DNA of 33,117 nucleotides, taken from NCBI GenBank assembly GCA_002328295.1, contig DCXE01000045.1, positions 3,349 through 36,465 on the forward strand, read 5' to 3'. A program made the translations under genes and the position numbers. This document shows positions 3,775 through 25,935 of this stretch, one piece after another. Source of the DNA: Candidatus Peribacter sp. UBA2144. GTDB lineage: Bacteria; Patescibacteriota; Gracilibacteria; Peribacterales; Peribacteraceae. How positions within the stretch are numbered: position 1 is the stretch's first letter; every line of letters begins with the position of its first letter. The notes beneath the pieces were generated by a model that was not told the origin of the DNA, ran no database searches, and was given only the letters and a program-made list of their open reading frames with translations.

Positions 3775-3778
3775 CATT

Positions 3779-9648: not shown

Positions 9649-9677
9649 CCCAACAGTCCTACAACTAATAATAAATA

Positions 9678-10898
9678 ATGCTACTGTCTGACACAATTTC
9701 GGCTGCAATGGAGGGACTCCACCGTTCCCGCCTCAGATCGATGTTAACAACGCTCGGAATCGTAATCGGAGTTGGCTCTGTTGTTCTAATGGTTTCTGTT
9801 GGAGCAAGTTTTGAACGTTATATCCTGGATCAGGTTGAAAGTTTTTCGGGAGATACGTTTGAAATTCATGCAAAGGGAGTTCAGGACATTGGAAAGGATG
9901 TATTAAGCATTACATTTGGAGACCTTGAAGCTATAAAAGATCTAACTACTGTGCAAAATGTAGCACCCGCAATCTTTTTGACTGACCGGATCAGTTATGG
10001 ACGCGAAGAGATAGCACCATTTATTTTTGGAACGACCAAAGAAATATTTATTAACTGGTCGCTGAAGATTGATCAGGGAAGATTGCTCACGGACGGAGAT
10101 GATAAGGGCGCCAAAAGTGTGACCGTCCTTGGTTCACAAGCTGCTGAAGATTTATTCCCTAACGAGAATCCTTTGGGCAAAAAAATAACTGTCGGCTCAC
10201 GTAAATTTACAGTTGTCGGAGTTATAGAAGCCATGGGCTCGCCGTTAGCTGAACAAATGGACTCAATTGTCTATGTGCCGTTCTCTGTAGCCAAGGCGAT
10301 ACAGGGGCGTAGTACTTATATTGACTACATAGCTCTGCAATCGAAGGGCGGTGATAATGAACTGACGAGAAGGGACATCGTCGCTCTGCTTAGGCAGAGA
10401 CACAACATAGATAATCCCGAAGATGACGGAGATAAGGATGATTTTTACGCGCGTTCTTTTGAGCAGGCAATGGAGATCATCAATACCGTGACGATGAGTA
10501 TTACGCTATTTCTAGGGCTCATCGCAGGCATCTCCCTTTTGGTTGGAGGAGTAGGAATCATGAACATCATGCTTGTGTCTGTTACCGAACGTACGAAAGA
10601 GATAGGACTAAGAAAAGCAGTTGGCGCACGCAGAATAGATATACTTCTTCAGTTCCTTTTGGAAGCGATTGTTCTTACTTTGATTGGAGGAGTAATCGGA
10701 GTTATTGGAGCCATCGGTTTGGGACTTCTTATGACAGCAGTTGCAAACAAGCTTTTGGGAGGCATCACTTATGCAATTACACTGACTTCAATTCTACTTC
10801 CTTTGATTACTGCAATAGTTGTAGGACTTATTTTTGGAATTTATCCGGCAAGGAAAGCAGCCAAACTTAGTCCAATTGAAGCAATGGGGTATGAATAA
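9678..10898 (+). CDS. second ABC transporter permease, MacB/FtsX family (paralog of 8286..9521)
   Basis: Same architecture and motif (GGVGIMNIMLVSVTERTKEIGLRKAVGARRIDIL). Confidence 0.9.
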   Translation: MLLSDTISAAMEGLHRSRLRSMLTTLGIVIGVGSVVLMVSVGASFERYILDQVESFSGDTFEIHAKGVQDIGKDVLSITFGDLEAIKDLTTVQNVAPAIFLTDRISYGREEIAPFIFGTTKEIFINWSLKIDQGRLLTDGDDKGAKSVTVLGSQAAEDLFPNENPLGKKITVGSRKFTVVGVIEAMGSPLAEQMDSIVYVPFSVAKAIQGRSTYIDYIALQSKGGDNELTRRDIVALLRQRHNIDNPEDDGDKDDFYARSFEQAMEIINTVTMSITLFLGLIAGISLLVGGVGIMNIMLVSVTERTKEIGLRKAVGARRIDILLQFLLEAIVLTLIGGVIGVIGAIGLGLLMTAVANKLLGGITYAITLTSILLPLITAIVVGLIFGIYPARKAAKLSPIEAMGYE

Positions 10899-10971
10899 AG
10901 ATATCGGCTTGCATTCATAACATCACTCAGGTAACAATAACTATGTATTCTATTATTTTCCCCTTTTGTAT

Positions 10972-11142
10972 ATGTTTTTTGATGACGAACCATGTTGCGG
11001 CGACGGTACATGCGCACCAGGAAGTGACGATGCAGGTGCAGGTGCAGGAGATGACGGAGCAGCAGGCGGAGATGATGCCGCACCTCCTCCTGTAGAGGAG
11101 CCATCAGCAGATGCTCCTGCGGAGCCCGAAGTTCCTGCTTAG
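10972..11142 (+). CDS. small acidic low-complexity peptide, 56 aa (below the ORF-track cutoff)
   Basis: My translation is MFFDDEPCCGDGTCAPGSDDAGAGAGDDGAAGGDDAAPPPVEEPSADAPAEPEVPA. Third codon positions are mostly A/T in this frame, as in the rest of the genome, although the segment is GC-rich. The other two overlapping frames have G/C-rich third positions. An intrinsic terminator follows. Confidence 0.35.
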   Translation: MFFDDEPCCGDGTCAPGSDDAGAGAGDDGAAGGDDAAPPPVEEPSADAPAEPEVPA

Positions 11143-11161
11143 GCTATTTACGAAAAATAGT

Positions 11162-11189
11162 TCCCGTCCGAGAGGCGGGGCTTTTTTTT
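11162..11189 (+). terminator. rho-independent terminator
   Basis: The tcccgtc / gaggcgggg stem (7 bp including 2 G-U) is followed by c + T8 (11182-11189). Confidence 0.6.
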
Positions 11190-11257
11190 CGTTGCTAACA
11201 TTCTCATACAAATTAACAGCACGCGTAATCTTCAATCAAACATCAATTTGAAATGGC

Positions 11258-11770
11258 ATGAATATCATGCAAGCTTCCCCTCCTATGAATCTACTTTCTG
11301 CACTTAAACCGACAAAAGATCTTAACGGAACAGTATCACCATTTATTTCTGAAGAACCCGATCATGAATTTCTTTCGGAAGAATTTTCCGAAGATGCTCC
11401 GGAAGCTCCAGCTCCAGATGATCTGCAAGCGCATGTAGTTAAGATTCATAGAAATACAAATCAAAAACTGATTATTGTTACTCACGACAAAACTTTGCTC
11501 TGCTTAAAACGAAATCTTTCAAGGCTCGGGAAGAATGAATGGATTGCTCCGCTGTCTACAGTACTCACAATTATCCTTGCGCTAATAACCGCAGACTTCC
11601 GTGGTGCTTTTGGACTGGGTGCTGCTGAATGGAAAGCTATGTTTGTTATCTCCGGCTTTATTACCACCGGCTGGTTAGCTCATACAATGCGTAAATCCAT
11701 CAGATCACTTAGTATGAATGAGGTTGTATACAACACAGTTGAGCAATTAGGAGGAAAAGCTATAAGCTAA
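11258..11770 (+). CDS. hypothetical membrane protein (acidic N-terminal half, two C-terminal TM helices)
   Basis: TM candidates are IAPLSTVLTIILALITADF and AMFVISGFITTGWLAHTM. No recognisable domain. Confidence 0.5.
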   Translation: MNIMQASPPMNLLSALKPTKDLNGTVSPFISEEPDHEFLSEEFSEDAPEAPAPDDLQAHVVKIHRNTNQKLIIVTHDKTLLCLKRNLSRLGKNEWIAPLSTVLTIILALITADFRGAFGLGAAEWKAMFVISGFITTGWLAHTMRKSIRSLSMNEVVYNTVEQLGGKAIS

Positions 11771-11809
11771 TAGGTGAAGATTTTCATAGTATTCCGTCGT
11801 TTTAAGGGG

Positions 11810-11815
11810 TATAAT
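11810..11815 (+). promoter_or_regulatory. -10 box TATAAT (ggggTATAAT), 11 nt upstream of ATG 11827
   Basis: aaggggtataatgagtttcaacaATG; no SD. Confidence 0.5.
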
Positions 11816-11826
11816 GAGTTTCAACA

Positions 11827-14070
11827 ATGCTTTTATTAGTCCGAATTCAGCAATGGGAAGAGCGAGCGGCCAAACCTGAGCCGCATTTCTCACAATTGCT
11901 CAGAAACCTGCATGAACAGCTTAAGGGAGCCAAAATCAGCTTCGAGTTAGCTTCGATCAACCAGCATATCTATTTCTTTTTAAATGTCCCAAATCAATTG
12001 AAGGAGCTAATGGTCGGACAGATTTATGCCATTTATCCTGATGCTGTTATAGAAGAAGTTGATGGAGATTATGCTAACGCGAAAGCCATTTCTGGTTCTG
12101 TAATGCTTTCGGCTCAGCTTGGAATGCGCCGTCCGGATATTTACCCCTGGAAGAGATTTGATGAATTTGAAGGAGACAGCCTTGCAGGATTGTTCACTGT
12201 AATGAGTAAATCTGAGGAAGGCCAACAGCTTTGGGCACAAATTGTAATGAAGCCGATTGATGATAACTTCAGTTTTAACTTAAGGCGCACTGTTAAATCA
12301 TTCGTAAATAGATTCAGGAAACTTATAAGGTTCAGAGATTTTGTAAAAGCGCGCGGACAAAAAGGGTTCAGAAAGCGTGAAAAAGATGGTCTCGCACAGA
12401 AAGCAGAAGAAAGACAATATAATGTCGCCGTGCGTGTTGCCGCAATTGCAAAGAATCAGGAAAGAGCACAGGGGCAATTGAATGCTCTGACTCAAGCCTA
12501 TGCGCAGTTCAACACTTTGGATTACAACGGATTTAAAATCTGTAAAAAGTCGAAAAATGAAGCTGCGCTTAAGCGATGGCAAGCTCGATTGATGGATGAT
12601 GCTTCATGGATGGGAATTTCGGAAGCGGCCGCTGTGTATCACTACCCTGACCCTGATATTGTTCCGCATATAGTGCACGTTATGGCCAGGAGATCGGAAC
12701 CGCCTTTGGACTTGCCAAAATCTGACGGTTCGGACGTTGTTCCTTTTGGAAAATCCAACTATCACAACCAACAAATCCCATTTGGACTTTTGCGAGCTGA
12801 CCGTGCCCGCCACCTTTATGTAGTTGGAAAATCTGGTACCGGTAAGTCAAAGATGCTTGAGCTTTTGATAGCCACTGACATTAAAGCCGGAAAAGGAGTC
12901 TGTGTAATGGATCCTCATGGAGATTTGGTAGATGCCGTTATTAAGCACATACCAAAGGAAAGAGTTGAGGATGTAATCTACTTTAATCCGATGGATACGG
13001 AGTTCCCAATTGCGTTTAATCCTATGCAAGCTGTGGATCCGAAACTCAAACTGAGAGTTACTATCGGTTTTATAGAGATCTTTAAGAAGCTTTTTGGAGC
13101 AAACTGGACACCTCGCCTTGAGCATGTGCTTAGGCAGACAACACTGGCGCTTTTGGACTCGGAGGGCACTACTGTGTTCTCCATTTTAAAAATGCTTTCG
13201 GACAAGAACTACCGCCAAAAGATTGTCGCGAAAATTGAGGATGCGGTAGTAAAGAACTTCTGGGTAAATGAGTTCGCGGCATGGAGTGAAAAATTTGATA
13301 ACGAGGCGATTACGCCTCTTTTAAATAAAGTTGGACAATTGGTATCTACAAATCTGATCAGAAACATCATCGGACAACCATACAATACGTTTGATATTCG
13401 CCAGGTGATGGATAACGAGAAGATAATGCTTGTTAAACTCAATAAAGGACTTCTGGGAGAAGAAAATGCCGCTCTCTTGGGTGCAATGCTAATTACAAAG
13501 ATCGAGCAGGCAGCTCTGGAACGTGCCGACACTCCCGAAGAGGAACGAAAAACTTTCTATCTTTACTGCGACGAGTTCCAATATTTTGCAACTGATACTT
13601 TTGCAGAGATTCTTTCTGAAGCCAGAAAATATAAATTGTCTTTGACTGTAGCTCATCAGTACATGGGACAATTGATTGATAAAGTTCGAACAACGGTATT
13701 TGGAAACATCGGAACAATCGTAAGCTTCCGTGTTGGAGCGGAAGATGCGGGGATTTTGGAGCAAGAATTTAATCCCATTTTCAAAGTCCGCGACATTATT
13801 AACCTCGCGGTAAGGGAGTTCTATATTAAGATGAGCGTGAAGGGAGAAACACGTGATGCATTCTCGGCAACTACAATGGATTGTACAACTCCCAAGGATT
13901 CCGAAAGTAATAAAGATGCGATAATTGAATTCTCTCGCAAGACATTCTCCAAGCCCAAGGATGAAGTGGAAGATCTGATGAGGAAATGGGACGAAAGCGG
14001 AGGGGACATCTCTCAAGAAGCTTGGTACAGCGGTGCATTAGATGAGGATTTCGCACCTCCCATAGTATAA
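11827..14070 (+). CDS. VirD4/TraG/TraD-like (type IV coupling protein-like) P-loop NTPase with an uncharacterised ~330-aa N-terminal domain; no TM segment
   Basis: Walker A is LYVVGKSGTGKSKM (nt ~12823-12852) and Walker B is FYLYCDEFQYF. It has a TraG/TraD C-terminal-type motif, EARKYKLSLTVAHQYMGQL. No other T4SS genes are in the window. Confidence 0.75.
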   Translation: MLLLVRIQQWEERAAKPEPHFSQLLRNLHEQLKGAKISFELASINQHIYFFLNVPNQLKELMVGQIYAIYPDAVIEEVDGDYANAKAISGSVMLSAQLGMRRPDIYPWKRFDEFEGDSLAGLFTVMSKSEEGQQLWAQIVMKPIDDNFSFNLRRTVKSFVNRFRKLIRFRDFVKARGQKGFRKREKDGLAQKAEERQYNVAVRVAAIAKNQERAQGQLNALTQAYAQFNTLDYNGFKICKKSKNEAALKRWQARLMDDASWMGISEAAAVYHYPDPDIVPHIVHVMARRSEPPLDLPKSDGSDVVPFGKSNYHNQQIPFGLLRADRARHLYVVGKSGTGKSKMLELLIATDIKAGKGVCVMDPHGDLVDAVIKHIPKERVEDVIYFNPMDTEFPIAFNPMQAVDPKLKLRVTIGFIEIFKKLFGANWTPRLEHVLRQTTLALLDSEGTTVFSILKMLSDKNYRQKIVAKIEDAVVKNFWVNEFAAWSEKFDNEAITPLLNKVGQLVSTNLIRNIIGQPYNTFDIRQVMDNEKIMLVKLNKGLLGEENAALLGAMLITKIEQAALERADTPEEERKTFYLYCDEFQYFATDTFAEILSEARKYKLSLTVAHQYMGQLIDKVRTTVFGNIGTIVSFRVGAEDAGILEQEFNPIFKVRDIINLAVREFYIKMSVKGETRDAFSATTMDCTTPKDSESNKDAIIEFSRKTFSKPKDEVEDLMRKWDESGGDISQEAWYSGALDEDFAPPIV

Positions 14071-14073: not shown

Positions 14074-14180
14074 GCATGCTGAGCCCGTCGAAGTATGCTC
14101 CGCCAATAGTCTGAGTGTCATCCTGAGCCCTGTCGAAGGATGACACGCCTGCCATGGTTCGACATAGCTCACCATGACAG
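14074..14180. repeat. REP/MITE-like GC-rich triple hairpin element
   Basis: Hairpins are gcatgct..agtatgc (14074-14098), gtgtcatcc-tgagccctgtcgaa-ggatgacac (14115-14146) and catggt-tcgacatagctc-accatg (14153-14176). It is nearly identical to 33005-33077. Confidence 0.85.
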
Positions 14181-14188
14181 GCTATTTT

Positions 14189-14197
14189 TGATATACT
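14189..14197 (+). promoter_or_regulatory. extended -10 TGaTATACT, 9 nt upstream of ATG 14207
   Basis: tttttgatatacttttaacccgATG; no SD. Confidence 0.5.
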
Positions 14198-14206
14198 TTT
14201 AACCCG

Positions 14207-15886
14207 ATGTCCAATTGCACCCAATGCAACCTCCAATTCGAACTCTCTGACAAAGAACTAGAGTTTTTGAGGCACGCTTCGCCCGAATACAATGGAGTTA
14301 AGTATGAAATCCCTCCCCCATCGCACTGCCCGCAGTGCAGAGTACAGAGGAGGATGGCATGGAGGAATGACAGATCATTTTATAAGAGTAAATGTGACGC
14401 GACTGGAGAAGAAATGATCTCGCTTTATCCCAAAGGAATGCCTTTCAAAGTTTTTCACTCTGACTATTGGTGGAGTGATAAGTGGGATCCGCTTGAATTC
14501 GGACAGGAGTATGACTTTAACAAACCGTTCTTTGCACAATGGGAGGAACTGATGAACAGAGTGCCAAGAAGAAATATGGATCTGGTAAATTGCCAGAACA
14601 GCCAGTACTGCAACTACTGCGGAGACGACAAGAACTGCTATTTGGACATTGCAGGAGAAGCTAATGAGGATTGTTACTACAATTTGTTTACTAAGTATTC
14701 TAAGAACTGTGCTGACTGCACGTTCGCGTATCATTCGGAGCTTTGTTACGAATGTATTCAGGTTTATAACTGCTACAACGTTCGTTACGCGATGTATATG
14801 GATGGGTGTTCTGAGAGTGCCTTTTGTTTTGACTGCAAAGGATGCAAGAACTGCATGCTTTGCGCTAATTTGAGGGATAAACAGTATTACATTCTTAATG
14901 AGCCTCATTCGAAGGAAGAATACGAAAAGAAACTGGAGGAACTTAAACTCAATTCTTTCGAATCTATTCTCCACGTATTTGATATCTGGAAAAAGATGCG
15001 ACTCGAGAAAGGCATCTACCGTGACATGGTGAATATTAATTGTGAAAACTCTACAGGAAATAATCTGAAGGACTGTAAAAATTGTTTTAACTGCTACAAT
15101 GCAACTAACTGTGAGGATTGCGCATACCTTTATGATGTTCTTGATGCGAAAGACTCTCAGGATTTAAACTATTCTCTTTATAAACCAGAAGTTGCTTACG
15201 AATTAATCTCAACTCTTAACATGCGCTTCTGCGCATTCAGCATGGCAACGCATTATTGCAGCAAATCATTTTATTGCGACTTATCTGATAACTCGCATGA
15301 CCTGTTTGGATGCATTGGAATTAATCATGGCAAGTATTGCATCTTAAATAAACAATATTCTCAGTCTGAGTATGAGGAACTTGTTCCAAGAATCATTGAG
15401 CACATGAAGTCGACCAGAGAATGGGGTGAGTTCTTCCCGGTAAACTTAAGCCCAAGCGCATACAACGAAACTGTTGCGCAGGAATACATGCCTTTGACCA
15501 AGGAGGAAGTTGCTTCGCGGGGTTTTAATTGGAGAGAAATGGAAGAAGACATCGGAGAAGTGGAAAGAACTATCCCGGCAGAACAATTACCAGATACGAT
15601 CGAGGAGATTCCGGACGATATCTTGAACTGGGCAATAGTCTGCGAGGAATCGAAGAAGCCCTTCAGAATTGTAAAACAGGAGCTTGCCCTGTATAGACAA
15701 CTCAAGATCCCCGTACCCCGCAGAAGCCCTTTACAAAGGCATAAAGACCGAAATGCTCTGAGGAACCCACGCGGCCTTTGGGAGCGCAAATGCGGCAAAT
15801 GCGGGAAGGATATGCATACGAGTTATGGCCCTGAGAAGCCGGAAACCGTGTATTGTGAGGAGTGTTACCTAGCTGAGGTATATTAA
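14207..15886 (+). CDS. cysteine-rich protein, paralog 1 (N- and C-terminal zinc ribbons, duplicated CxxC-rich core); uncharacterised family
   Basis: 559 aa, with 37 Cys by my count. N-terminus CTQC...CPQCRVQRR, C-terminus RKCGKCGK...VYCEECYLAEVY. It is paralogous to the next two ORFs along the full length. Confidence 0.85.
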   Translation: MSNCTQCNLQFELSDKELEFLRHASPEYNGVKYEIPPPSHCPQCRVQRRMAWRNDRSFYKSKCDATGEEMISLYPKGMPFKVFHSDYWWSDKWDPLEFGQEYDFNKPFFAQWEELMNRVPRRNMDLVNCQNSQYCNYCGDDKNCYLDIAGEANEDCYYNLFTKYSKNCADCTFAYHSELCYECIQVYNCYNVRYAMYMDGCSESAFCFDCKGCKNCMLCANLRDKQYYILNEPHSKEEYEKKLEELKLNSFESILHVFDIWKKMRLEKGIYRDMVNINCENSTGNNLKDCKNCFNCYNATNCEDCAYLYDVLDAKDSQDLNYSLYKPEVAYELISTLNMRFCAFSMATHYCSKSFYCDLSDNSHDLFGCIGINHGKYCILNKQYSQSEYEELVPRIIEHMKSTREWGEFFPVNLSPSAYNETVAQEYMPLTKEEVASRGFNWREMEEDIGEVERTIPAEQLPDTIEEIPDDILNWAIVCEESKKPFRIVKQELALYRQLKIPVPRRSPLQRHKDRNALRNPRGLWERKCGKCGKDMHTSYGPEKPETVYCEECYLAEVY

Positions 15887-15935
15887 TGCCCCCTGTATGT
15901 ACATTGTACATACAATAGAAATTGAGTGAATGAGG

Positions 15936-15941
15936 TATACT
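15936..15941 (+). promoter_or_regulatory. -10 box TATACT (tgaggTATACT), 8 nt upstream of ATG 15950
   Basis: gaatgaggtatactagccaccaATG. Confidence 0.5.
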
Positions 15942-15949
15942 AGCCACCA

Positions 15950-17635
15950 ATGCCCTCCTGCCAAAAATGCCAGGCTGAATTTCAGATTCATGACGATGAG
16001 CATGCGTTCTTAAAAAAGATAACATTCAAATTTGGTGATAAATCTTATAACCCACCTGAGCCCATCTATTGTCCCGAGTGCAGAATGGTAATTCGCACAT
16101 GCCACAGGAAAGAATGGAATTTCCACAAAAATAAATGCGCAATAACCGGTAAAGATTTAATTTCTTTGTACGCGACTGAGCCGCTTTGGGGGAAACCCTA
16201 CACAGTTTATGCAGAAGACATTTGGGTTGGGGATGATCTTGATCCAATGAAGTATGGAAGGGAGTTTAATTTTTCTTGCTCCTTCTTTGAACAGTTTGCC
16301 GAGCTTCTAAAAGACGTTCCACGCCGTTCCATGTGCACAGTTGATAATCAAAATTCTGAATTTACAACCGGCGCAGGCTACTGCAAGAACTGTTATTTGA
16401 TAAATTCGTCTGAAAATTGCGAAGATTGTTATTACGGCAAGCTTTTTCAGGATTGTTCCGACTGCATCGACTGCTCATACATTTACAATTGTGAACTTTG
16501 CTACGAAAGCTTCTTCCTACAAAGGTGTTACCACTGTCTATATCTGCTCCACAGCCAAAACTGTCAGGATTGCCATTTTTCAACCAATTTGAATGCATGT
16601 AAAAACTGCTGTCTTTGCTCAAATCTGCATCAAAAAGAGTATCACTTCCGCAATGAACCGCTTTCTAAAGAAGAGTATGAGGCAAAAGTAAAAGAATTCA
16701 TGGGATCACATGAGAAGATGAACAAAATGCGCGAGGAGCTAATGGAAATTTACGAAACCCAAGTTCACAAATACTCAAATATAGCTAATTCAAAAAATTG
16801 CACAGGTGATCACATAGAAAATTCTAAAAATTGTTTTGACTGTTACGACATGACCGAGAGTGAGGACTGCAAATATGTTCAAGTCGGGTTTCAAGTGAAG
16901 GACAATTACGATTGTTCGAACATGTATATTAAACCGGAGCTTTGTTATGAAGTTCTGGGAACAATTGAAGTCTTTAACTGCGCTTACAGCATCTTTGTTT
17001 TCAACTCACAAAACATGTTGTACTGTGATTACTGTTATCACTGCAATGATTGCTTTGGATGCTCGGGGCTGACTAGAAAGAAGTTCTGTATTTTCAATAA
17101 ACAATATTCCGAAGATGAATATAACGAGCTTGTGCCAAAAATTATTGAACATATGCAAGCGAACAACGAATGGGGGAAGTTCTTTTTGCCGGAATACGCA
17201 CCATTTGGATACAACGAGAGCGTAGCTCAGGAATACGTGCCTTTGACTAAGGAAGAAGCGAAAGAGAAGGGTTATTTATGGAGAGAATTGAAGGATGATA
17301 TTCCTAAGGTGGAAAAAACTATTCCTGCGGATCAATTGCCGGACAGAGTTGAAGACATTCCTGATGATGTCCTGAATTGGGCTATTACAAGCCAAAAATC
17401 AGGCAGGCCATACCAGATCCTTAAGCCCGAGCTTGCCTTCTACAGAGGCCAAAACCTTCCTCTCCCCCGCCTTCACCCGGACGAACGCTATTCGCGCAGG
17501 TTGGAGCTCAGAAATCCGCGCAAATTATGGGATAGAAAGTGCGATAAGTGCGAGAAGGAAGTCTCGAGTACATACCATCCTTCGCGATCTGAAAAAATAT
17601 ACTGCGAACAATGTTATTTGACAGAAATATATTAA
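15950..17635 (+). CDS. cysteine-rich protein, paralog 2 (most divergent copy)
   Basis: 561 aa. CQKC...CPECR at the N-terminus and RKCDKCEKEV...IYCEQCYLTEIY at the C-terminus. Same module order as paralog 1. Confidence 0.85.
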   Translation: MPSCQKCQAEFQIHDDEHAFLKKITFKFGDKSYNPPEPIYCPECRMVIRTCHRKEWNFHKNKCAITGKDLISLYATEPLWGKPYTVYAEDIWVGDDLDPMKYGREFNFSCSFFEQFAELLKDVPRRSMCTVDNQNSEFTTGAGYCKNCYLINSSENCEDCYYGKLFQDCSDCIDCSYIYNCELCYESFFLQRCYHCLYLLHSQNCQDCHFSTNLNACKNCCLCSNLHQKEYHFRNEPLSKEEYEAKVKEFMGSHEKMNKMREELMEIYETQVHKYSNIANSKNCTGDHIENSKNCFDCYDMTESEDCKYVQVGFQVKDNYDCSNMYIKPELCYEVLGTIEVFNCAYSIFVFNSQNMLYCDYCYHCNDCFGCSGLTRKKFCIFNKQYSEDEYNELVPKIIEHMQANNEWGKFFLPEYAPFGYNESVAQEYVPLTKEEAKEKGYLWRELKDDIPKVEKTIPADQLPDRVEDIPDDVLNWAITSQKSGRPYQILKPELAFYRGQNLPLPRLHPDERYSRRLELRNPRKLWDRKCDKCEKEVSSTYHPSRSEKIYCEQCYLTEIY

Positions 17636-17674
17636 AATGACCCGATCGCTACGGATGGCAAGTGCACCCGCCTG

Positions 17675-17713
17675 CCCACCGTAGCTCGAAGCGAAGCGTA
17701 GAGCGTAGGTGGG
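17675..17713. repeat. REP-like GC-rich hairpin (cccacc ... ggtggg around gctcgaagcgaagcgtagagc)
   Basis: It shares the (c)tcgaagc/gaagg core flavour of the 14115 and 33005 elements. Confidence 0.5.
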
Positions 17714-17765
17714 AGAAGATTTATTGCGAGACTTGTTACTTGGAAGAAGTCTATTGATAGCCACT

Positions 17766-17865
17766 TGTCTGAACCATGATTAAAAGGATTTATGGATAGA
17801 CAGGATTAAGGATCTTTCCATGTAATCAAGTTAATCCTGTAATCATGTGAATCAAGGTTCAGACA
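17766..17865. repeat. ~100-nt inverted repeat tgtctgaaccatgatt ... aatcatgtgaatcaaggttcagaca
   Basis: tgtctgaacc (17766-17775) pairs with ggttcagaca (17856-17865). catgatt pairs with aatcatg inside. Confidence 0.7.
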
Positions 17866-17869
17866 GGGG

Positions 17870-17875
17870 TATACT
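17870..17875 (+). promoter_or_regulatory. -10 box TATACT (ggggTATACT), 8 nt upstream of GTG 17884
   Basis: acaggggtatactgatagtccGTG. Confidence 0.5.
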
Positions 17876-17883
17876 GATAGTCC

Positions 17884-19569
17884 GTGCAAAAAGCCTGCTC
17901 CAAGTGCGGCACTGGATTCGAGATCACGCAAAGTGATCTGGATTTTTATGACAAAGTCTCCCCAATGTTTGGAGGAAAGAAATGCATGATCCCACCTCCA
18001 AAATTATGTCCAGATTGCAGATTGCAAAGAAGGGTGGCATGGAGAAACGAACGGTTTATGTACAAACGAAAATGTGATGCGACAGGTAAAGATATTATTT
18101 CAATGTATCCTCCGGATTCTCCATTTAAGATCTATGAACAAAGTGTTTGGTGGAGCGATAGCTGGAACGCGCTTGATTATGGCAGAGACTTTGATTTTAA
18201 CCGTCCGTTTTTCGAACAATTCCGTGAACTACAATTGGAAGTGCCTCGTCTTGCGCTCGTAAACAAGAATAGCCACAACTCTCAATATACTAATCATGCT
18301 GGAGATAACAAAGATTGCTATCTTTCTGCAACCATATTTGAATCTGAGGATATTTATTATTCCGATTGGGTTATAGATCATTGTCGAGATCTGGTTGATT
18401 GTTCTTATGTGATGGAAGGATGTGAACTGTGCTACGAAATATATTACGGATGGGGCTCATATCAGGCATTCTTCAGTGAATTTACAAAGAGGTGCCAAAA
18501 CATTTGGTTTTGTTATGACTGCATGAACTGCAAGCATTGCTTCTTATGTTCAAACCTTAGAAACAAAGAATATTGTTTCGAAAACAATCAATTAACAAAG
18601 GAGGAGTACGAAAAAAAGATTAAGAGCCTTCTTCCATGGTCGCATTCGAACCTGAAGGAATATAAAACTAAGTACATTAAAATGAAGGAAGGGCAGGCTG
18701 TTCATCCAGCTATTTATCAGGTTCAATCTTTGGACTCTAGTGGAGATCTTTTATTTCAGACAGAAAACTGTCAACACTGTTTCGATATTATCGGATCAAA
18801 AGACTGCAGATACTGCCAAAGTGTAATAGACGTTAAAGATTGCTTGGACATATATCACGTTGGATGGGCGGAGTTAATGTATGAATGCCATGCAATCAGC
18901 AACGGATACCAATGTTTTGCGTGTCACTTCACATATGACAACTCAAATTCTATCTACTGCGATTGTACTCAGAATTGCAAAAATGTATTTGGATGCTGCA
19001 GTTTGAATCAGCAGGAATATTGCATAATGAACAAGAAGTATTCCAAAGATGAGTACAACTCTCTTGTACCAAAGATTATTGAGCACATGCAAAATACAGG
19101 TGAATGGGGGGAATTCTTCCCAATGGAGTATTCACCGTTTGCTTACAACCAGTCCAGAGCACCCGAATTTATTCCAATTACAAAAGAAGAGGCTAAATCC
19201 AAAAACATCAGATGGTCCGATTATGTTCCACCCGCTCCGGATTCCAATAAAACAATACTTGCCAGCAATCTTCCCGAAATGACTTCTGACATTCCCGATG
19301 ATGTACTCGATTGGGCAATCAAATGCGAAATTACATCAACCCCTTATCAGATAATTCGAAAAGAATTGGAGTTCTATAGGAAATCCGGACTTCCCATTCC
19401 ACGCAGACACCCCAATCAACGTTATATTGATCGAATTTCTATGAGGACCCCATGGAAACTCTTTAATAGAAAATGTGATAAATGCAGTAAGGAAATCGAG
19501 TCTACGCATAGCCCCGAAAAACCCGAGAAGATTTATTGTGAGAAGTGCTACTTAAAAGAAGTATATTAA
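17884..19569 (+). CDS. cysteine-rich protein, paralog 3 (GTG start)
   Basis: 561 aa. CSKC...CPDCRLQRRVAWRNER at the N-terminus and RKCDKCSKEI...IYCEKCYLKEVY at the C-terminus. It is closest to paralog 1. Confidence 0.85.
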   Translation: MQKACSKCGTGFEITQSDLDFYDKVSPMFGGKKCMIPPPKLCPDCRLQRRVAWRNERFMYKRKCDATGKDIISMYPPDSPFKIYEQSVWWSDSWNALDYGRDFDFNRPFFEQFRELQLEVPRLALVNKNSHNSQYTNHAGDNKDCYLSATIFESEDIYYSDWVIDHCRDLVDCSYVMEGCELCYEIYYGWGSYQAFFSEFTKRCQNIWFCYDCMNCKHCFLCSNLRNKEYCFENNQLTKEEYEKKIKSLLPWSHSNLKEYKTKYIKMKEGQAVHPAIYQVQSLDSSGDLLFQTENCQHCFDIIGSKDCRYCQSVIDVKDCLDIYHVGWAELMYECHAISNGYQCFACHFTYDNSNSIYCDCTQNCKNVFGCCSLNQQEYCIMNKKYSKDEYNSLVPKIIEHMQNTGEWGEFFPMEYSPFAYNQSRAPEFIPITKEEAKSKNIRWSDYVPPAPDSNKTILASNLPEMTSDIPDDVLDWAIKCEITSTPYQIIRKELEFYRKSGLPIPRRHPNQRYIDRISMRTPWKLFNRKCDKCSKEIESTHSPEKPEKIYCEKCYLKEVY

Positions 19570-19623
19570 GTGTCATCCCGAGCTAAGCCTGTGCTGAGCG
19601 TAGTCGTAGCATCGAGGGATAGC
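19570..19623. repeat. REP-like element (gtgtcatcccgagc...tcgagggatagc)
   Basis: A degenerate relative of the gtcatcctgagc...cgaaggatgac hairpin. Confidence 0.5.
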
Positions 19624-19628
19624 TGAGG

Positions 19629-19634
19629 TATACT
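19629..19634 (+). promoter_or_regulatory. -10 box TATACT (tgaggTATACT), 6 nt upstream of ATG 19641
   Basis: gctgaggtatactaactccATG. This spacing predicts a leaderless transcript. Confidence 0.5.
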
Positions 19635-19640
19635 AACTCC

Positions 19641-20057
19641 ATGCACTCAAAACTTTCTGACTCTGCACACGTTTTAATACTCGAAACTGGTGAAGAGATT
19701 GTAGAAGGCTTAACTAAGTACTTAACTGAGAATAATATTACCGCAGGATCAATTTCTGGAATCGGTGCTGCGACTGATGTGATATTGAATTTTTATAATA
19801 TGGAAACAAAAGAATATGAGGAGAAGGGTTTCCCGGAGGAACTTGAAATCCTTTCTCTTGTTGGAAATATTTCAATTAAGGAAGGCTCCCCGTTCGCTCA
19901 CTTGCACATTGTTCTTGGTAATAACGAATACGCGTGCATCGGAGGACATCTGAAGTCGGCGCGTGTAGGACCCACTTGCGAGATTGTGATTCAGCAACTT
20001 GATGCTGAGATGAAGAGAGAATTGGATGAGGTTACTGGGTTGTATTTGCTAACATAG
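19641..20057 (+). CDS. PPC (DUF296) domain protein, putative DNA-binding
   Basis: 138 aa with the typical DUF296 layout (LETGEEIVEGLTKY...ITAGSISGIGA...LEILSLVGNIS...HLHIVLG...GGHL). Confidence 0.75.
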   Translation: MHSKLSDSAHVLILETGEEIVEGLTKYLTENNITAGSISGIGAATDVILNFYNMETKEYEEKGFPEELEILSLVGNISIKEGSPFAHLHIVLGNNEYACIGGHLKSARVGPTCEIVIQQLDAEMKRELDEVTGLYLLT

Positions 20058-20073
20058 TCATTGATTAGTATGT

Positions 20074-20100
20074 AGGTATGTGCGCACATACCTTCTTATT
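20074..20100 (+). terminator. terminator-like perfect palindrome aggtatgtgc/gcacatacct followed by tcttatt
   Basis: 10-bp stem at 20074-20093, downstream of the PPC gene stop. Confidence 0.5.
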
Positions 20101-20118
20101 AATATTTATGAATAAATA

Positions 20119-20144
20119 AAGAGCCCGAATATCTCCGAGCTCTT
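20119..20144 (-). terminator. terminator for the SIMPL gene (aagagc...gctctt stem, T-rich tail on the minus strand)
   Basis: The minus strand reads aagagctcggagatattcgggctctttatttattc. Confidence 0.5.
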
Positions 20145-20159
20145 CTTATGCAATTTCAA

Positions 20160-20912
20160 TTATTTCAACTCGTAAGTCAGCGAAACATTCACTCTAATTT
20201 CCTGCTCTCCTGTGGGCACAGGCGGCATATTGGCTTCATCCATATCTCCGCCACCTCCCATCCCATAAGCCATAGCCTTTTCCATTCTTGCATACGGCAT
20301 TCCTCCCCCGCCTTCGTTGAAGCCTCTTAGCTTTCCGAGGCTTTTGCCGAGTTGTTTGGCCAAGTCTGCGGCTTTTTTCTGACCATTCTCGATGGCCTTG
20401 GTACGCGCCTGTTCCCTGAGAATCTCGGGCTCATCGATCGTAAAATTGACGCTGCCAGCCTGATTTGCACCGGCTGCAGTTGCGGCAGCAAGTACCTTGC
20501 TCGTGTCATCCGTATTTCTGATCTTTACTCGAACATTCTGGTTCGCCTCGAATCCTCTATCGATTCTTTTGCCTTCATTCCAATCGTAAGCAGGACTTAA
20601 GTTTAAATGCTGAGTTTTAATATCTTTTTCTTCAACTCCCTGTTCTTTGATCGCATCGACAACAGCAGTCATTTTCTTGCCAAGAATTTTCATCGCTTCT
20701 TCCGATGTTTTTACACGTCCGGTTTTAACTCCGAAACTGAGTTCTGCAATATCCGGATTTGCCATAACTTTTCCTTCTCCGCTAACAGTGATTGTTAACT
20801 GATCGTAATTGCGAGTTTCAATTTTCTTACCAAGTACAAAAGATCCACCGAGTATTACGGCGACTAAAATCATTGCAATAAACTTTCCTGAACCTGAGTT
20901 GCATGAGTCCAT
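20160..20912 (-). CDS. SIMPL (DUF541) domain protein, N-terminal membrane anchor/signal
   Basis: ITVSGEGKVMANPDIAELSFGV...AMKILGKKMTAVVDAIKEQGVEEKDIKTQHLNLSPAYDW... is the typical SIMPL/BP26-like fold signature. Confidence 0.8.
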   Translation of the reverse strand: MDSCNSGSGKFIAMILVAVILGGSFVLGKKIETRNYDQLTITVSGEGKVMANPDIAELSFGVKTGRVKTSEEAMKILGKKMTAVVDAIKEQGVEEKDIKTQHLNLSPAYDWNEGKRIDRGFEANQNVRVKIRNTDDTSKVLAAATAAGANQAGSVNFTIDEPEILREQARTKAIENGQKKAADLAKQLGKSLGKLRGFNEGGGGMPYARMEKAMAYGMGGGGDMDEANMPPVPTGEQEIRVNVSLTYELK

Positions 20913-20946
20913 ATGTGTGAGGGGTTAAATGGTAGGGGTGAAGTAT

Positions 20947-21041
20947 AAGTGAAGAGTTAAAAGTTAATAGTGAAAAGTTTACTTAGATATGTCCAAATAG
21001 ATATTATAAAAAACACTATTCACTATTAACTATTCACTTTT
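20947..21041. repeat. word-type inverted repeat (agtgaat / attcact words); the right arm is identical to 30141-30168
   Basis: cactattcactattaactattcactttt at 21014-21041 matches 30141-30168 at 28/28 nt. The last codons and the stop of sufC lie inside this arm. Confidence 0.85.
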
Positions 21042-21788
21042 AACTTTATAGCCCTTTTCCTCCAATTCCAGCGCCAATTCTGGACCTCCGCTATCAGCAA
21101 TTCTCCCATCAATCACCATATGCACACGGTCTGGCTTAACGTAATCAAGAATCCGCGCATAATGAGTTATGATCAAAAATGATCTTTCTGGCGAGCGCAA
21201 TTTTTCTATTCCCTCAGCAACTATTTTTAGCGCATCAATATCGAGTCCTGAGTCAGTTTCGTCTAACAAAGCAAATTTGGGTTCTAATACAAGCATCTGC
21301 AGCATCTCTGCTTTTTTCTTTTCTCCTCCGGAGAATCCTTCATTTACTGACCTATCGCAAAAATTATGATCCATACCAATCTCATCCATTTTTTGCTGAA
21401 GAAGTGCCTGAAAAGTTATGGGAGAAATCTCTCTACCATCCGGATGTCTGGCAGACATCTGCGCTTTATATGCAGCAAGTAGAAAACTTCTGAGTGAAAC
21501 TCCGGAAATGGTGCGAGGATATTGGAATGCAAGAAATACGCCTGCCTTGGCTCTCTCATCAGGTGTCATACTGAATAGATCTTGTCCTCTGAATGACATT
21601 TCCCCTGAAGTTACCTTGTAATCAGGATGGCCCATAAGAACATTCGAAAGTGTCGACTTGCCAGAACCGTTTGGACCCATAAGGGCATGTACTTCGCCTT
21701 GAGGAATTTCCAGATCAACTCCATGTAAGATCTCCTGTTCTTCAACTAATACTTTAAGGCCTTTTATGGAAAGAAATGAATTGATAAT
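21030..21788 (-). CDS. sufC: Fe-S cluster assembly ATPase SufC; 5' end uncertain (no ATG/GTG/TTG upstream of the conserved N-terminus; ATT at 21788 or ATC at 21785 possible)
   Basis: Walker A GPNGSGKST, signature FSGGEKKKAEMLQM, Walker B LALLDETDSGLD. Homology to the E. coli SufC N-terminus (MLSIKDLHV...) continues as SFLSIKGLKVLVEEQEILHGVDLEIPQGEVHAL, upstream of the first ATG (21680). Confidence 0.88.
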   Translation of the reverse strand: MINSFLSIKGLKVLVEEQEILHGVDLEIPQGEVHALMGPNGSGKSTLSNVLMGHPDYKVTSGEMSFRGQDLFSMTPDERAKAGVFLAFQYPRTISGVSLRSFLLAAYKAQMSARHPDGREISPITFQALLQQKMDEIGMDHNFCDRSVNEGFSGGEKKKAEMLQMLVLEPKFALLDETDSGLDIDALKIVAEGIEKLRSPERSFLIITHYARILDYVKPDRVHMVIDGRIADSGGPELALELEEKGYKVKSE

Positions 21789-21857
21789 TGAGAATTGATA
21801 ATTGATAATAGTAATCCAATTCTCAATTCTTCATTCTCAATTCTCAATTCTCAATTC
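21781..21857. repeat. word-type inverted repeat (ttgataat/tgagaat vs attctca words)
   Basis: ttgataattgagaattgataattgataa faces caattctcaattcttcattctcaattctcaattctcaattc. Confidence 0.8.
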
Positions 21858-22428: not shown

Positions 22429-22487
22429 AAATTGTAAGTGGAAAGTGGAAAATCATTTTCCATTTACCACTTTCAACTTTCAATTTA
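22429..22487. repeat. word-type hairpin (gtggaaa / tttccac words)
   Basis: aaattgtaagtggaaagtggaaaatc faces attttccatttaccactttcaactttcaattt. Confidence 0.85.
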
Positions 22488-24125: not shown

Positions 24126-25935
24126 AGCATAGCGAAAGCCGCCCAACCTTTCGGTCAGGCGGCTACGCTCCTAAATTGGTTTCAACCGTATCGCAGGCAC
24201 AAGGCCTTTGACCGGTTGTTTTTCAGTCATCAACGATGACCTTCGTCGTGAGACCACTTAGGTCCACGTCGATGACACTGGCCACCAGGTTCTCGTCGAG
24301 CGCGGTGACGCTTTCGATGGTCAGTCTGAACGGCACGCCCATCGCCAACGGTTCGGCAAAAATGTCGACCTCAACCCACCAATCCAACGGATCATCATCG
24401 AAGATGAAGTTTCCGTTATCCGGCCAGGTGAAGGTCAAGACGCCGTTAGCGGGTTGAACCGCATTCGACATCTGAACGGCTCCGCCGTTCCCATCGTCCG
24501 CCCAGATCATCGCGGCGAACACGTTCGTCAGGTCGCCTTGGACAGAGGAATCCGTTCCAATGACGATCTCCGTAACGGTTGAGTCGACCGGCGTCGAGTA
24601 GCCCTGGGCGTTGAGCGCCCTGATAGCTATGTCGCCGGGCTCCACTACCGTTTCGAACGGCATGTCATCCGTGATGACGAACACATTAGCCGGTAGCGTC
24701 GGCGGAACGGGCGGTCCGGGCGGTTGGACTTGCGGCGGTGGATTCTGAACCACCTCCACAGTGTCGAACTGAACGTCTCCGACGATCAAGTCAACTTCGT
24801 CACCACGATACGCTCCTGCCGAGAAATCGATCAGTACGTTGTACTCCGCGCCGGTTGTAATGGCGCCCAAGTGAGCAACGTAATCCTGTTCGATCCTGAC
24901 ATTCGACACGGCTTCTGTGCTACCCACCAACTCGACACTGACGGTGTTACCCGTCGCCACTTCCACAACCTCAGTTGAGGTAATGAACGTGGGTTCCATG
25001 TCGCCAGACGGAGGATACGTAACGTTCGACCAACCAATCGTGAACACCGCATCAACTACAAGCGGATCCGTTTCGCTGTGAACGAAACGCGGTGTTCCCA
25101 GGTGCACGTCTTCTTGCACCCGTTCCCCGACGTTCTGGTTGACCCGTTGATGCGCGACTTCAACAGTATACGCAAGCGGTTCAGGATCGTCCGCCGGGAT
25201 CGGTCTAGGCAAGGTACGCGAGCCGTTCGAATTGAGGTCGTTGATTATCACCAACACATCGATAGGCGCTATCACACCATCGCCGTTGACATCAAGCGGA
25301 TTACTCGGGATCGCTGCAGACACGTTGCGCGAGCCATACGAATTGAGATCGTTTATGACCTGCAACGCATCCAGAGGCGCTACCACACCGTCGCCGTTGG
25401 TATCATTTCGGCGTCCACTCCAGACACGAATCTGCTTCGCGGCTTCGTTGTTGCTCGGATCCGTATCCGTGCCGCTAACAACCGCTTGCGCAATCAGGTC
25501 GACCAGATCATCTTCCACCAAGTCTACGCCGTAGAGTGGAAGATAAACGGACGCGGTATGCCCGTCGGGAATGTTTCCGACGGCGTTGCGCAGTTTTCCG
25601 CCAACCATCTCCCATCCGGCATCCATTGCCGGAACGCCAAGCACCAACCCTGGGGGCAGATCCGCCTCGATTATTACGTCGTTGGACTGTCCGTCGTGAC
25701 TTGTGGCCGAAAGGCGTAAGTCAACGACGTGCAAGTTCTCGACGTCAATCGGGACGGCCCAACCTAATTCCAAGTCCGCCGCGAGCATCACACGATTCTC
25801 GAGCGGCTCAAGCAACAATCTGCGTGCCGCATTTCTACGGCATTTCGTGCGACGCGCGTGCAAACTGCTCGCGCTCGCAACTCCATTTGACGATCACAAT
25901 TGTCCCTTGTTACGCATGACTCTCATCCTTTGCGA
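24126..25935. other. compositional island (~55-58% GC in sampled lines vs ~35-42% in the flanks), single gene
   Basis: Hand counts of 60-nt lines give 58% at 24241 and 55% at 25261. The flanks give 38% at 12001, 28% at 28261 and 33% at 25921. There are no word-type repeats inside. Confidence 0.75.
24223..25863 (-). CDS. secreted-type protein with two dockerin-like (EF-hand-like) repeats and a planctomycete-style N-terminal RRLLLEPLENRVMLAA motif
   Basis: NDTNGDGVVAPLDALQVINDLNSYG and DVNGDGVIAPIDVLVIINDLNSNG are encoded at nt ~25225-25407. The N-terminus is MHARRTKCRRNAARRLLLEPLENRVMLAA. There is a PPPQVQPPGPPVPP linker, and third codon positions are G/C-rich, unlike every other gene here. 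Confidence 0.8.
   Translation of the reverse strand: MHARRTKCRRNAARRLLLEPLENRVMLAADLELGWAVPIDVENLHVVDLRLSATSHDGQSNDVIIEADLPPGLVLGVPAMDAGWEMVGGKLRNAVGNIPDGHTASVYLPLYGVDLVEDDLVDLIAQAVVSGTDTDPSNNEAAKQIRVWSGRRNDTNGDGVVAPLDALQVINDLNSYGSRNVSAAIPSNPLDVNGDGVIAPIDVLVIINDLNSNGSRTLPRPIPADDPEPLAYTVEVAHQRVNQNVGERVQEDVHLGTPRFVHSETDPLVVDAVFTIGWSNVTYPPSGDMEPTFITSTEVVEVATGNTVSVELVGSTEAVSNVRIEQDYVAHLGAITTGAEYNVLIDFSAGAYRGDEVDLIVGDVQFDTVEVVQNPPPQVQPPGPPVPPTLPANVFVITDDMPFETVVEPGDIAIRALNAQGYSTPVDSTVTEIVIGTDSSVQGDLTNVFAAMIWADDGNGGAVQMSNAVQPANGVLTFTWPDNGNFIFDDDPLDWWVEVDIFAEPLAMGVPFRLTIESVTALDENLVASVIDVDLSGLTTKVIVDD

Follow-up and report, generated by a model that had tools for sequence, protein, structure and literature searches.

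Which protein family do three long, cysteine-rich genes standing in tandem in Candidatus Peribacter sp. UBA2144 belong to, and what could its members do in the cell? We addressed these questions on a window of 33,117 nucleotides, the whole stretch of DNA that was analysed (GenBank assembly GCA_002328295.1, contig DCXE01000045.1, positions 3,349 to 36,465 of the forward strand; the coordinates below are those of the window). In the list of its open reading frames (ORFs), three intact frames of 559, 561 and 561 amino acids follow each other on the plus strand. It is well supported that these proteins are members of a large, undescribed family of cytoplasmic proteins, and we are highly confident in the descriptive part of this work, namely the architecture, the family and its distribution. 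The three genes are:

14207..15886, plus strand, copy 1 (c1), 559 amino acids, 37 cysteines
15950..17635, plus strand, copy 2 (c2), 561 amino acids, 42 cysteines, 43% identical to copies 1 and 3
17884..19569, plus strand, copy 3 (c3), 561 amino acids, GTG start, 37 cysteines

With its GTG start, copy 3 has an N-terminus in register with those of copies 1 and 2; the public gene call for the equivalent of copy 3 on a sister contig is also of 561 amino acids. An initial annotation, made by eye from the sequence, had described three same-strand paralogs of about 35-50% identity that share one architecture along their whole length. This description holds, with pairwise identities of 43, 42 and 43% end to end, and every sequence module that it quoted was found in the three ORFs; its count of 37 cysteines in copy 1 is exact. 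As it had also stated, the proteins have no transmembrane or signal-like segment, the maximal 19-residue Kyte-Doolittle mean over c1-c3 being at most 1.24. From the N- to the C-terminus, their layout comprises a basic zinc module, an aromatic-rich helical segment, two capped solenoids, a second helical segment and a second basic zinc module. Charge is polarised along the protein: the terminal modules have median charges of +5 and +6 and the solenoids of -5 each, the segments between these parts being acidic too.

A large family in one branch of the Patescibacteria

More than 6,900 matches came out of 5.8 billion proteins in a word-indexed search. An exhaustive hidden Markov model (HMM) search of 1.84 billion cluster representatives (clusters at 50% identity) retrieved 2,146 clusters at E<1e-30, and 4,718 when the threshold was relaxed to E<1e-3. 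Among the matches listed, nearly all of the top ones are 540-580 amino acids long and aligned from residue 1-5 to the last residue. In a locus scan covering one genome per GTDB species, with neighbourhoods viewed over 6 kb on either side, at least 515 loci were confirmed in species genomes. The best 80 of these at least 515 loci come nearly all from metagenome-assembled genomes (MAGs) labelled Peribacteria, Peregrinibacteria, Gracilibacteria, Abawacabacteria or unclassified Patescibacteria. Three of the 80 are labelled otherwise (Micrarchaeota, Bdellovibrionales and Saccharibacteria), one of them being a 3.3-kb contig, and we suspect mis-binning or mislabelling. In this sample of public genomes, the family is almost entirely confined to the Peregrinibacteria/Peribacteria/Gracilibacteria branch of the Patescibacteria, also termed candidate phyla radiation (CPR).

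Within 6 kb of each match, same-strand tandem arrays hold one to eight copies. Several MAGs have more than one locus; L065 and L075 together hold at least 13 copies. CPR genomes measure about 1-1.4 Mb, yet in some members of this branch a 1.7-kb gene is present in at least 8-13 copies, with no recent duplicate among them. This amounts to an investment of the order of 1-2% of coding capacity in a family that has neither a database description nor a structural relative. In several arrays, toxin-antitoxin-like pairs made of a Gp49/HigB-like and a helix-turn-helix (HTH) protein sit between family copies (L084 6732-7346, L085 4327-4941), and a MazF-like ORF lies within the array of L043 (11803-12138).

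Two predicted solenoids with a narrow core

The centre of each protein is predicted to form two solenoids, which are delimited in copy 1 as follows:

14579..14908, plus strand, predicted solenoid 1 (residues 125-234), about nine 12-residue coils, capped by N-L-R-x-K-x-Y-x-I-x-N...SKEEYE
15023..15358, plus strand, predicted solenoid 2 (residues 273-384), duplicate of solenoid 1 with the same cap

That the core is internally duplicated had been claimed initially and is confirmed by profile alignment of residues 122-246 with residues 270-396 (hhalign, probability 100%, E 3e-39). An AlphaFold2 (AF2) model of copy 1 built with 42 sequences had a mean predicted local distance difference test (pLDDT) of 82.8 and a predicted template modelling score (pTM) of 0.83; a second one, built with 150 diverse sequences, reached 91.3 and 0.91. 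In the first model, the strands of the well-modelled part of solenoid 1 (190-193, 202-205, 214-217, 226-229) recur with a period of 12, and in the second one those of solenoid 2 come every 12 residues (284-288, 296-300, 309-312, 340-343, 352-355, 364-367, 376-379). This strand period, and weak Foldseek matches that are all to beta-helix proteins, are in agreement with the solenoid-like repeat suggested by the initial annotation.

All 16 solenoid-1 cysteines of copy 1 fall in one period-3 phase (P 7e-8), as do 97% of the solenoid-1 cysteines of 146 family representatives, the set on which the conservation values of individual residues given below were computed. In the columns of this phase, Cys makes up 41%, Ser 18% and Leu 10%, with Val, Asn, Thr, Ile, Ala and Gly coming next; in the other columns, Asn, Tyr, Asp, Glu and Phe prevail. 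Most core cysteine columns are 30-80% conserved. The best conserved ones (144, 213, 216, 219, 369 and 378) reach 80-98%, C369 and C378 standing at 98%, and the last coil of solenoid 1, C210-x2-C213-x2-C216-x2-C219, is conserved at 71-92%. Co-occurrence of cysteines is slightly negative at i/i+6 (mean -0.12) and weakly positive at i/i+12, with no block co-occurrence within coils.

Together with the models, these sequence patterns point to a pair of capped solenoids, each with about nine coils of 12 residues, in which one small residue per three would face a very narrow core. Cysteine is the preferred but not the obligatory core-lining residue. Since core cysteines keep a period-3 phase and exchange with Ser, Leu and Val, most of them probably are structural packing residues rather than obligate metal ligands. 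The best conserved ones could nonetheless form one extra metal site per solenoid cap.

The initial annotation had regarded the core cysteines mainly as metal ligands. Stacked CxxC words would then hold a row of centres, made of Zn, Fe-S or Cu-thiolate, that follows the axis of the solenoid and serves in storage, electron transfer or redox sensing. The 37-42 cysteines per protein, the conservation of the C210/C213/C216/C219 coil and of C369 and C378, and the Fe-S assembly genes found within 10 kb of the array in the window (SufBD), in L001 (SufE) and in L002 (NifSU) fit such a role. Nevertheless, in-phase columns in which cysteine makes up 41% and exchanges freely with Ser, Leu, Val, Thr and Ala, the anticorrelation at i/i+6, the lack of block co-occurrence and the mostly 30-80% conservation are not what ligand sets would be expected to show, and c1-c3 have no ferredoxin-type (Fer4) Pfam match. 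The Fe-S assembly genes do not recur across the 82 loci surveyed for neighbours (cysteine desulfurase is found in two only), so we consider their proximity as coincidental and rejected the link. Altogether, we give little credence to a metal or redox function of the core.

Terminal zinc-finger modules

Two modules bracket the core of copy 1:

14207..14461, plus strand, N-terminal zinc module (residues 1-85), intact CxxC...CPxC treble-clef-like finger, Arg-ladder helix, degenerate second finger (C63)
15629..15883, plus strand, C-terminal zinc module (residues 475-559), degenerate first finger (C479), Arg ladder, intact CxxC-x17-CxxC finger

Each module is a pair of small cysteine fingers, one of which is degenerate. 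In the N-terminal one, the ribbon cysteines C4, C7, C41 and C44 are 85-99% conserved and the second finger is reduced, with C63 retained and a YCxxC motif still visible in the family consensus. In the C-terminal one, the first finger is reduced to C479 alone (99%), and the ribbon C529-x2-C532-x17-C550-x2-C553, which has equivalents in copies 2 and 3, is conserved at 97-100%, C529 being invariant (100%). In the AF2 model of copy 1, this C-terminus is a folded finger with a pLDDT of 93-97. We found that the two modules are homologous to each other (residues 1-85 and 475-559, hhalign E 4.8e-30), a relationship absent from the initial annotation. In addition, each module carries arginines at i, i+4 and i+8 of one helix, R45/R49/R53 and R511/R515/R519, and this ladder is highly conserved (R45 97%, R49 96%, R53 91%, R511 100%, R515 95%). 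In GATA and nuclear-receptor fingers, nucleic acids are read by helices that bear basic residues and begin at the second Cys knuckle of a treble clef.

Profile matches of the C-terminal finger remain below threshold, with 20.7, 19.8 and 16.3 bits for PF23477 (cut-off 27; E 3.4e-4 for copy 1) and 18.9 and 15.5 bits for TIGR04272 (cut-off 36; E 9e-4 for copy 1). The finger also weakly resembles the second finger of LIM domains (E 0.03, PDB sequence search). PF13451 matched none of c1-c3 even at E<=1; it is carried as a precomputed annotation by the orthologs P0033, P0035, P0048, P0075 and P0078, and several orthologs are annotated with both PF13451 and PF23477. The C-terminal finger of c1 has exactly the CxxC-x17-CxxC spacing of the 'probable treble clef' fingers TIGR04272 and PF23477. 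However, proteins of these two families and of PF13451, which are of the order of 40-110 amino acids, are small, stand-alone and both archaeal and bacterial, whereas here a two-finger module occurs twice and brackets a core of about 400 amino acids that they lack. Two small Methanosarcina proteins carrying a CxxC-x17-CxxC domain were shown to bind Zn by inductively coupled plasma mass spectrometry (PMC12704099). From their sequence, the terminal CxxC ribbons are likely Zn sites; the conserved CxxC columns and the sub-threshold matches thus agree with the zinc-ribbon caps that had been proposed at both ends.

The fingers are not present in all members. In L031, a locus of a MAG using genetic code 25 ('bacterium isolate LH_M95', 965-14069, translated with code 25), full-length genes alternate with those of a 472-496-amino-acid subfamily that matches only HMM positions ~71-513, and is therefore without both terminal zinc fingers.

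Comparison with known families and folds

Scans of c1-c3 against Pfam, NCBIfam and PADLOC gave no model for the core and only sub-threshold zinc-finger matches; there was no match at E<=1 in PADLOC-DB and no Hexapep match in Pfam. Searching PDB by sequence, with a single protein and then with a 42-sequence profile, recovered the LIM second finger only (E 0.03), and Foldseek found nothing below E 0.09 in PDB (both models) or in BFVD. The initial annotation could not place the family in any characterised one, and this was borne out: the confident match to a family of known function that it had named as contrary evidence was sought by Pfam, NCBIfam, PDB sequence and Foldseek searches and was not found. 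A search of the literature on the family, its domains and its gene neighbourhood yielded nothing specific and no description. The terminal fingers are sub-threshold members of known finger families, and for the core, the overall architecture, the arrangement in arrays and the conserved gene neighbourhood we found no counterpart among described families or systems.

The weak PDB matches of Foldseek are all left-handed beta-helices (LpxA, LpxD, gamma-carbonic anhydrase, eIF2B and GlmU), with E >=0.1, probability <=0.12, template modelling (TM) score <0.25 and root-mean-square deviation >10 A. As the only structure class returned, they are consistent with a beta-solenoid. In LpxA, LpxD, gamma-carbonic anhydrase and the C-terminal domain of GlmU, a coil counts 18 residues with an aliphatic one every sixth position, whereas here it counts 12 with a small residue every third. 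Judged from the models, the matches would reflect the solenoid class and not homology.

The antifreeze protein of Tenebrio molitor (TmAFP, 1EZG) is a secreted protein built of 12-residue coils, TCTxSxxCxxAx, with its cysteines in obligatory i/i+6 disulfides. It shares with the present family the 12-residue coil, the small inward residue every third position and a core too narrow for normal hydrophobic packing, the inward residues being Cys/Ser/Ala in TmAFP and Cys/Ser/Leu/Val/Thr/Ala here. Unlike TmAFP, our proteins have no signal peptide and no Thr ice-binding ladder, and no Pfam or Foldseek match joins the two. Disulfide pairing as in TmAFP was rejected on the i/i+6 co-occurrence of -0.12. 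If the model is right, the family would provide a beta-solenoid of the cytoplasm that is no wider than insect antifreeze proteins but is braced by a Cys/Ser ladder instead of obligatory disulfides.

Repeats of this kind are also found in viral sequences. The solenoid repeats are matched by phrog_15341, a PHROG of unknown function (E 4e-8 to 2e-5), and a 98-amino-acid viral ORF on an IMG/VR contig (L082:253-549) is a nearly pure CSxCSx run that ends in the family cap motif YKILNIQLTKEEYEKK; by its sequence it may be a stand-alone mini-solenoid. Phrog_15341 and the small phage ORFs are made of (Cys-Ser-x)n and the family cap; each is a lone short solenoid that lacks both the zinc modules and the helical segments. 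A tblastn search of 50,697 phage genomes found no match to the full-length family, and IMG/VR gave one partial match; on these grounds, a phage or mobile origin was rejected.

Finally, cysteine-rich proteins have been published for the same lineage. Those of Ca. Peribacter riflensis share with the present family a remarkable richness in cysteine; they measure 580-3,860 amino acids, most have predicted signal peptides, and they have Myxococcus-type Cys-rich repeats or a pappalysin-like annotation (PMC4736985). Our family of ~560 amino acids is not in the table of Cys-rich proteins of that paper or in the sections of its text that we consulted, and identity of the two sets was rejected, the published proteins being mostly predicted as secreted and mostly much larger (PMC4736985).

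Ancient paralogs under purifying selection

Among 191 within-locus paralog pairs, the median identity is 41.8% and the maximum 57%, and none is a recent duplicate. At the same time, 67% of the copies have a counterpart more than 50% identical in another species. For the three copies of the window, orthologs are 53-74% identical to c1 (94% for one partial protein), 47-79% to c2 (L004, L019, L040, L048, L068) and 62-67% to c3 (L010, L012, L013, L032, L061). Since each copy is closer to orthologs in other species than to its array neighbours, the arrays are made of ancient, separately maintained lineages, as the initial annotation had anticipated in calling the triplication old and maintained. 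Moreover, compared with its counterpart in a 99.4% identical strain, copy 2 shows 18 synonymous and 5 nonsynonymous changes, which corresponds to a ratio of nonsynonymous to synonymous polymorphism (pN/pS) of 0.06. We conclude that the paralog lineages are kept by purifying selection.

The chance that these ORFs are artefacts, that is non-functional low-complexity frames or decaying pseudogenes, appears vanishingly small. A probable gene relic between copies 2 and 3 (see below) does show that copies can be lost, but we are dealing with three intact frames of near-equal length, a pN/pS of 0.06, thousands of full-length homologs with conserved columns and a confident AF2 model. The low-complexity artefact that the initial annotation had itself raised is contradicted by the same observations.

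How conservation is distributed differs between the two scales. In the orthogroup of c1, the solenoids are the most conserved parts, with a mean column identity of 0.79 and 0.75 versus ~0.65 for the termini; over the family as a whole, at 0.48 and 0.46, they rank with the least conserved segments. Positions that are at least 90% conserved in the c1 orthogroup and at most 40% conserved family-wide lie inside the solenoids in 38 of 39 cases. At the sequence level, this points to recognition surfaces that are stable and specific to each lineage, carried by a common chassis, a pattern that would be unlike arms-race diversification.

Family-wide, the most conserved non-cysteine parts are the two helical segments (0.60 and 0.63), with W88, D91, W93, D103 and Q111 in the first, and E405, G407, F409-P411, S415, Y419-N420-E421, W442 and E492 in the second. 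This leads to an enzyme family with paralog-specific substrates as a candidate: the active site would lie in the helical segments, substrates that differ between paralogs, for instance RNAs, sugars or envelope precursors, would be held in place by the solenoids, and the TrmB-like regulators encoded next to many arrays would sense the substrates. In line with this, the finger-less subfamily of L031 retains exactly these two segments, and regulators of the TrmB family classically control metabolic genes. Yet neither a recognisable catalytic motif nor a profile or fold match to any enzyme was found, and the beta-helix enzymes among the weak Foldseek matches have TM-scores below 0.25 and a different repeat period. 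An enzymatic role is thus unlikely in our opinion, if worth keeping in mind.

Neighbouring genes

All non-family ORFs from 82 loci were clustered, and 77 loci were scored for neighbours. Just two neighbour families recur in more than four of the 82 loci, a TrmB-like regulator and a VirD4-like ATPase. The regulator, a winged-helix protein of ~250 amino acids that belongs to the TrmB family and is divergent in sequence (PF01978, E 1.5e-13), is found in 33 loci, almost always directly upstream of a family gene and in divergent orientation; some arrays have several such genes interspersed. Where the 5' end of the array is visible, it lies within 1 kb upstream in 18 of 45 arrays. The second family is represented in the window:

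11827..14070, plus strand, soluble VirD4/TraD-like P-loop ATPase, 747 amino acids, Walker A motif GKSGTGKS at residue 334

This protein matches Pfam T4SS-DNA_transf (E 5e-12) and TrwB_AAD_bind, as well as, in part, the TraD/VirD4-like models of NCBIfam, and weakly mad8/HerA of PADLOC. It has no transmembrane segment. Of the 77 loci, 18 have a VirD4-like ATPase, most often directly after the array and in the orientation of the family genes; in the window, the gene is directly before it. Among arrays with a visible 3' end, it starts within 1 kb downstream in 9 of 37. A survey of Patescibacteria counted 5,713 VirD4 homologues, of which 148 are near virB4, and its authors raised the possible exaptation of such genes for other functions (PMC12102498). 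Many distinct copies per genome stand beside genes of the same two kinds, regulator and ATPase, which makes a central role of the family in these organisms probable.

As a VirD4/TraD-like ATPase is encoded beside the array here and at 17 other loci, the paralogs could be secreted cargo that the ATPase passes to the type IV secretion apparatus of Patescibacteria, to act on host cells. These bacteria have type IV secretion systems without conjugation components (PMC12102498), the C-terminal region of the family is basic (+6), and a diversified repertoire would suit a lineage thought to be host-dependent. The ATPase, however, lacks a membrane anchor, and most such genes are away from virB4 (PMC12102498). 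Instead of a disordered signal, the C-terminus is a confidently folded zinc finger, a protein with two Zn modules and two rigid solenoids would be a poor substrate for an unfolding-dependent translocon, and the solenoid surfaces are conserved within orthogroups rather than fast-evolving. We regard secretion as quite unlikely.

Elements around the array and strain variation

Several short elements lie before, between and after the three copies:

14115..14182, no strand assigned, double hairpin resembling repetitive extragenic palindromic (REP) elements (GTGTCATCCT...AGGATGACAC, then GCCTGCCATGGT...ACCATGACAGGC), upstream of copy 1
14192..14197, plus strand, TATACT -10-like box, 9 nt before the ATG of copy 1
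15894..15914, no strand assigned, perfect 10-bp palindrome TGTATGTACA t TGTACATACA in the c1/c2 spacer, unrelated to the REP-like element
15936..15941, plus strand, GG-TATACT -10-like box, 8 nt before the ATG of copy 2
17713..17757, plus strand, probable relic of the 3' end of a lost fourth copy, c2/c3 spacer frame EKIYCETCYLEEVY-stop matching the family C-terminal consensus
17870..17875, plus strand, GG-TATACT -10-like box, 8 nt before the GTG of copy 3
19571..19583, no strand assigned, truncated REP-like copy just past the stop codon of copy 3

The TATACT box reported 8-9 nt from each start is thus real, at 9, 8 and 8 nt. The next gene after the array, which encodes a PCC-domain protein and starts at 19641, also has a TATACT 6 nt before its start. 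Altogether, 9 of the 27 genes of the window have a TATA(A/C)T 6-12 nt before the start and no Shine-Dalgarno sequence (starts at 2858 on the minus strand, 5495, 11827, 14207, 15950, 17884, 19641, 22991 and 32239), so the box is a genome-wide feature and not one of the family. It most likely reflects a genome-wide use of leaderless or near-leaderless mRNAs, and suggests, from sequence, that each copy is its own transcription unit. Canonical sigma-70 promoters were rejected: a -35/-10 scan found 16 versus 14.4 expected from shuffles, and the -10-like boxes alone stand.

As for the REP-like elements said to separate the copies, one family (GTGTCATCCTGAGC...GGATGACAC) does flank the array and has a further copy at 33007, but the c1/c2 spacer holds a different palindrome and the c2/c3 spacer, of 248 bp, imperfect hairpins only. 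The frame at 17713-17757 in the latter is probably the remnant of a lost fourth copy; its tblastn E values are high (0.02-0.3) because the match is short. The sister contig, too, has fragments of family genes from their C-terminal end.

The sister contig L086 (JGI Ga0373649_0000866, from a metagenome) is 99.4% identical to the window over positions 14114-21857 only. Synteny breaks at the REP-like hairpin on the left and among tandem heptamers on the right. To the left of the hairpin, where the window has the ATPase, L086 carries at least four further full-length copies and a 109-amino-acid C-terminal fragment 95% identical to c3. The two strains therefore differ in array content, with at least seven copies versus three. 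Either array content varies by recombination at repeats, or one of the assemblies is misjoined at them. All 23 coding differences lie in copy 2 (15950-17632), copies 1 and 3 being nucleotide-identical, and this patchy divergence suggests allelic recombination.

Such variation between close strains could fit an anti-phage or conflict system, in which the solenoids would sense invader molecules, the ATPase of the HerA/FtsK/VirD4 class would be the effector motor, winged HTH proteins would regulate and the arrays would be variable islands. The toxin-antitoxin modules within arrays (Gp49 and HTH in L084/L085; MazF-like ORFs) and the weak PADLOC match of the ATPase to mad8/HerA can be added to its credit. 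Against this, the family proteins have no PADLOC match and no nuclease or other effector domain, the paralog lineages are old with surfaces that are conserved rather than diversifying, and the family is essentially absent from phage collections. A defence role is improbable in our view.

A possible repertoire of specificity adaptors

Based on the conservation patterns of the sequences, we propose as our preferred reading, one that is tentative and held with clearly less than even confidence, that the paralogs are a repertoire of specificity adaptors feeding a common machine. The two Zn modules with their R-x3-R-x3-R helices, together with the two helical segments, would make up a common head that binds one shared polyanionic or protein partner. 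The top candidates for this partner would be nucleic acid or the neighbouring soluble VirD4-like hexameric ATPase. Because the solenoid surface is conserved within a paralog lineage and different between lineages, each paralog would recognise its own partner through that surface, and the nearby soluble ATPase would be the shared machine. Each gene would have a leaderless-type promoter of its own and, in many genomes, would be switched by the divergently encoded TrmB-like regulators. Zn would be expected at the terminal CxxC fingers only, with possibly one site per solenoid cap.

Several points weigh against the adaptor proposal. The finger-less subfamily of L031 implies that the terminal fingers are not indispensable to the function of the core. 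The associations with the ATPase and the TrmB-like gene cover only 24-40% of visible array ends, and no TrmB-like gene lies within the window. The junction between the ATPase and copy 1 falls at the repeat where L086 differs, so their adjacency could be strain-specific or an assembly join. The geometry of head and arms rests on sequence conservation and secondary-structure output, and acidic solenoids with Arg ladders are compatible with several other functions.

A narrower form of the adaptor proposal, to which we attach a small chance, is that the family is the missing client or adaptor set of the 'orphan' soluble VirD4-like ATPases of Patescibacteria: with the lineage-specific surface of its solenoids, each paralog would capture a cargo of its own, protein or nucleic acid, and the invariant Zn/Arg head would dock on the ATPase. 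Adaptor sets of ring ATPases are known in IcmS/IcmW/LvgA on the Legionella coupling protein DotL and in ClpS/SspB/MecA on Clp unfoldases. By analogy, they would share the proposed logic of many specificity subunits, one docking part and one hexameric motor encoded nearby. This is an analogy only: neither set has a sequence or fold relationship to the family, and the ATPase here is soluble. If this ATPase-docking form is true, the Peregrinibacteria/Gracilibacteria branch would have a new sorting system of its own that is driven by ATP, and the fold on which it is built, a double beta-solenoid with Cys-lined 12-residue coils, would be one not seen before. More generally, identification of the partner could explain a lineage-defining trait of Peregrinibacteria and Gracilibacteria, as well as the role of the thousands of Patescibacteria VirD4-like genes that are away from type IV secretion genes.

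Other features of the window

Heptamer tandem arrays (period 7, 3-8 copies, units differing by spacer) fill many intergenic spacers, often directly upstream of starts:

7279-7314, 8195-8266, 9539-9648, 20947-21045, 21779-21857 and 22436-22486, heptamer arrays
26780-26803, 28216-28247, 28641-28673, 29464-29591 and 30084-30165, heptamer arrays

A bacterial 16S rRNA gene lies at positions 1-1250 and is cut by the start of the window. After it come polysaccharide deacetylase and SufBD genes, both on the other strand, and no 23S rRNA gene; as the window has no tRNAs either, the rRNA genes appear to be unlinked. Finally, an ORF of 546 amino acids on the minus strand (24223-25863) has a GC content of 0.55 versus ~0.42, a dockerin type I domain and an N-terminal motif like those of Planctomycete extracellular proteins; it may be a horizontal acquisition or have a biased composition.

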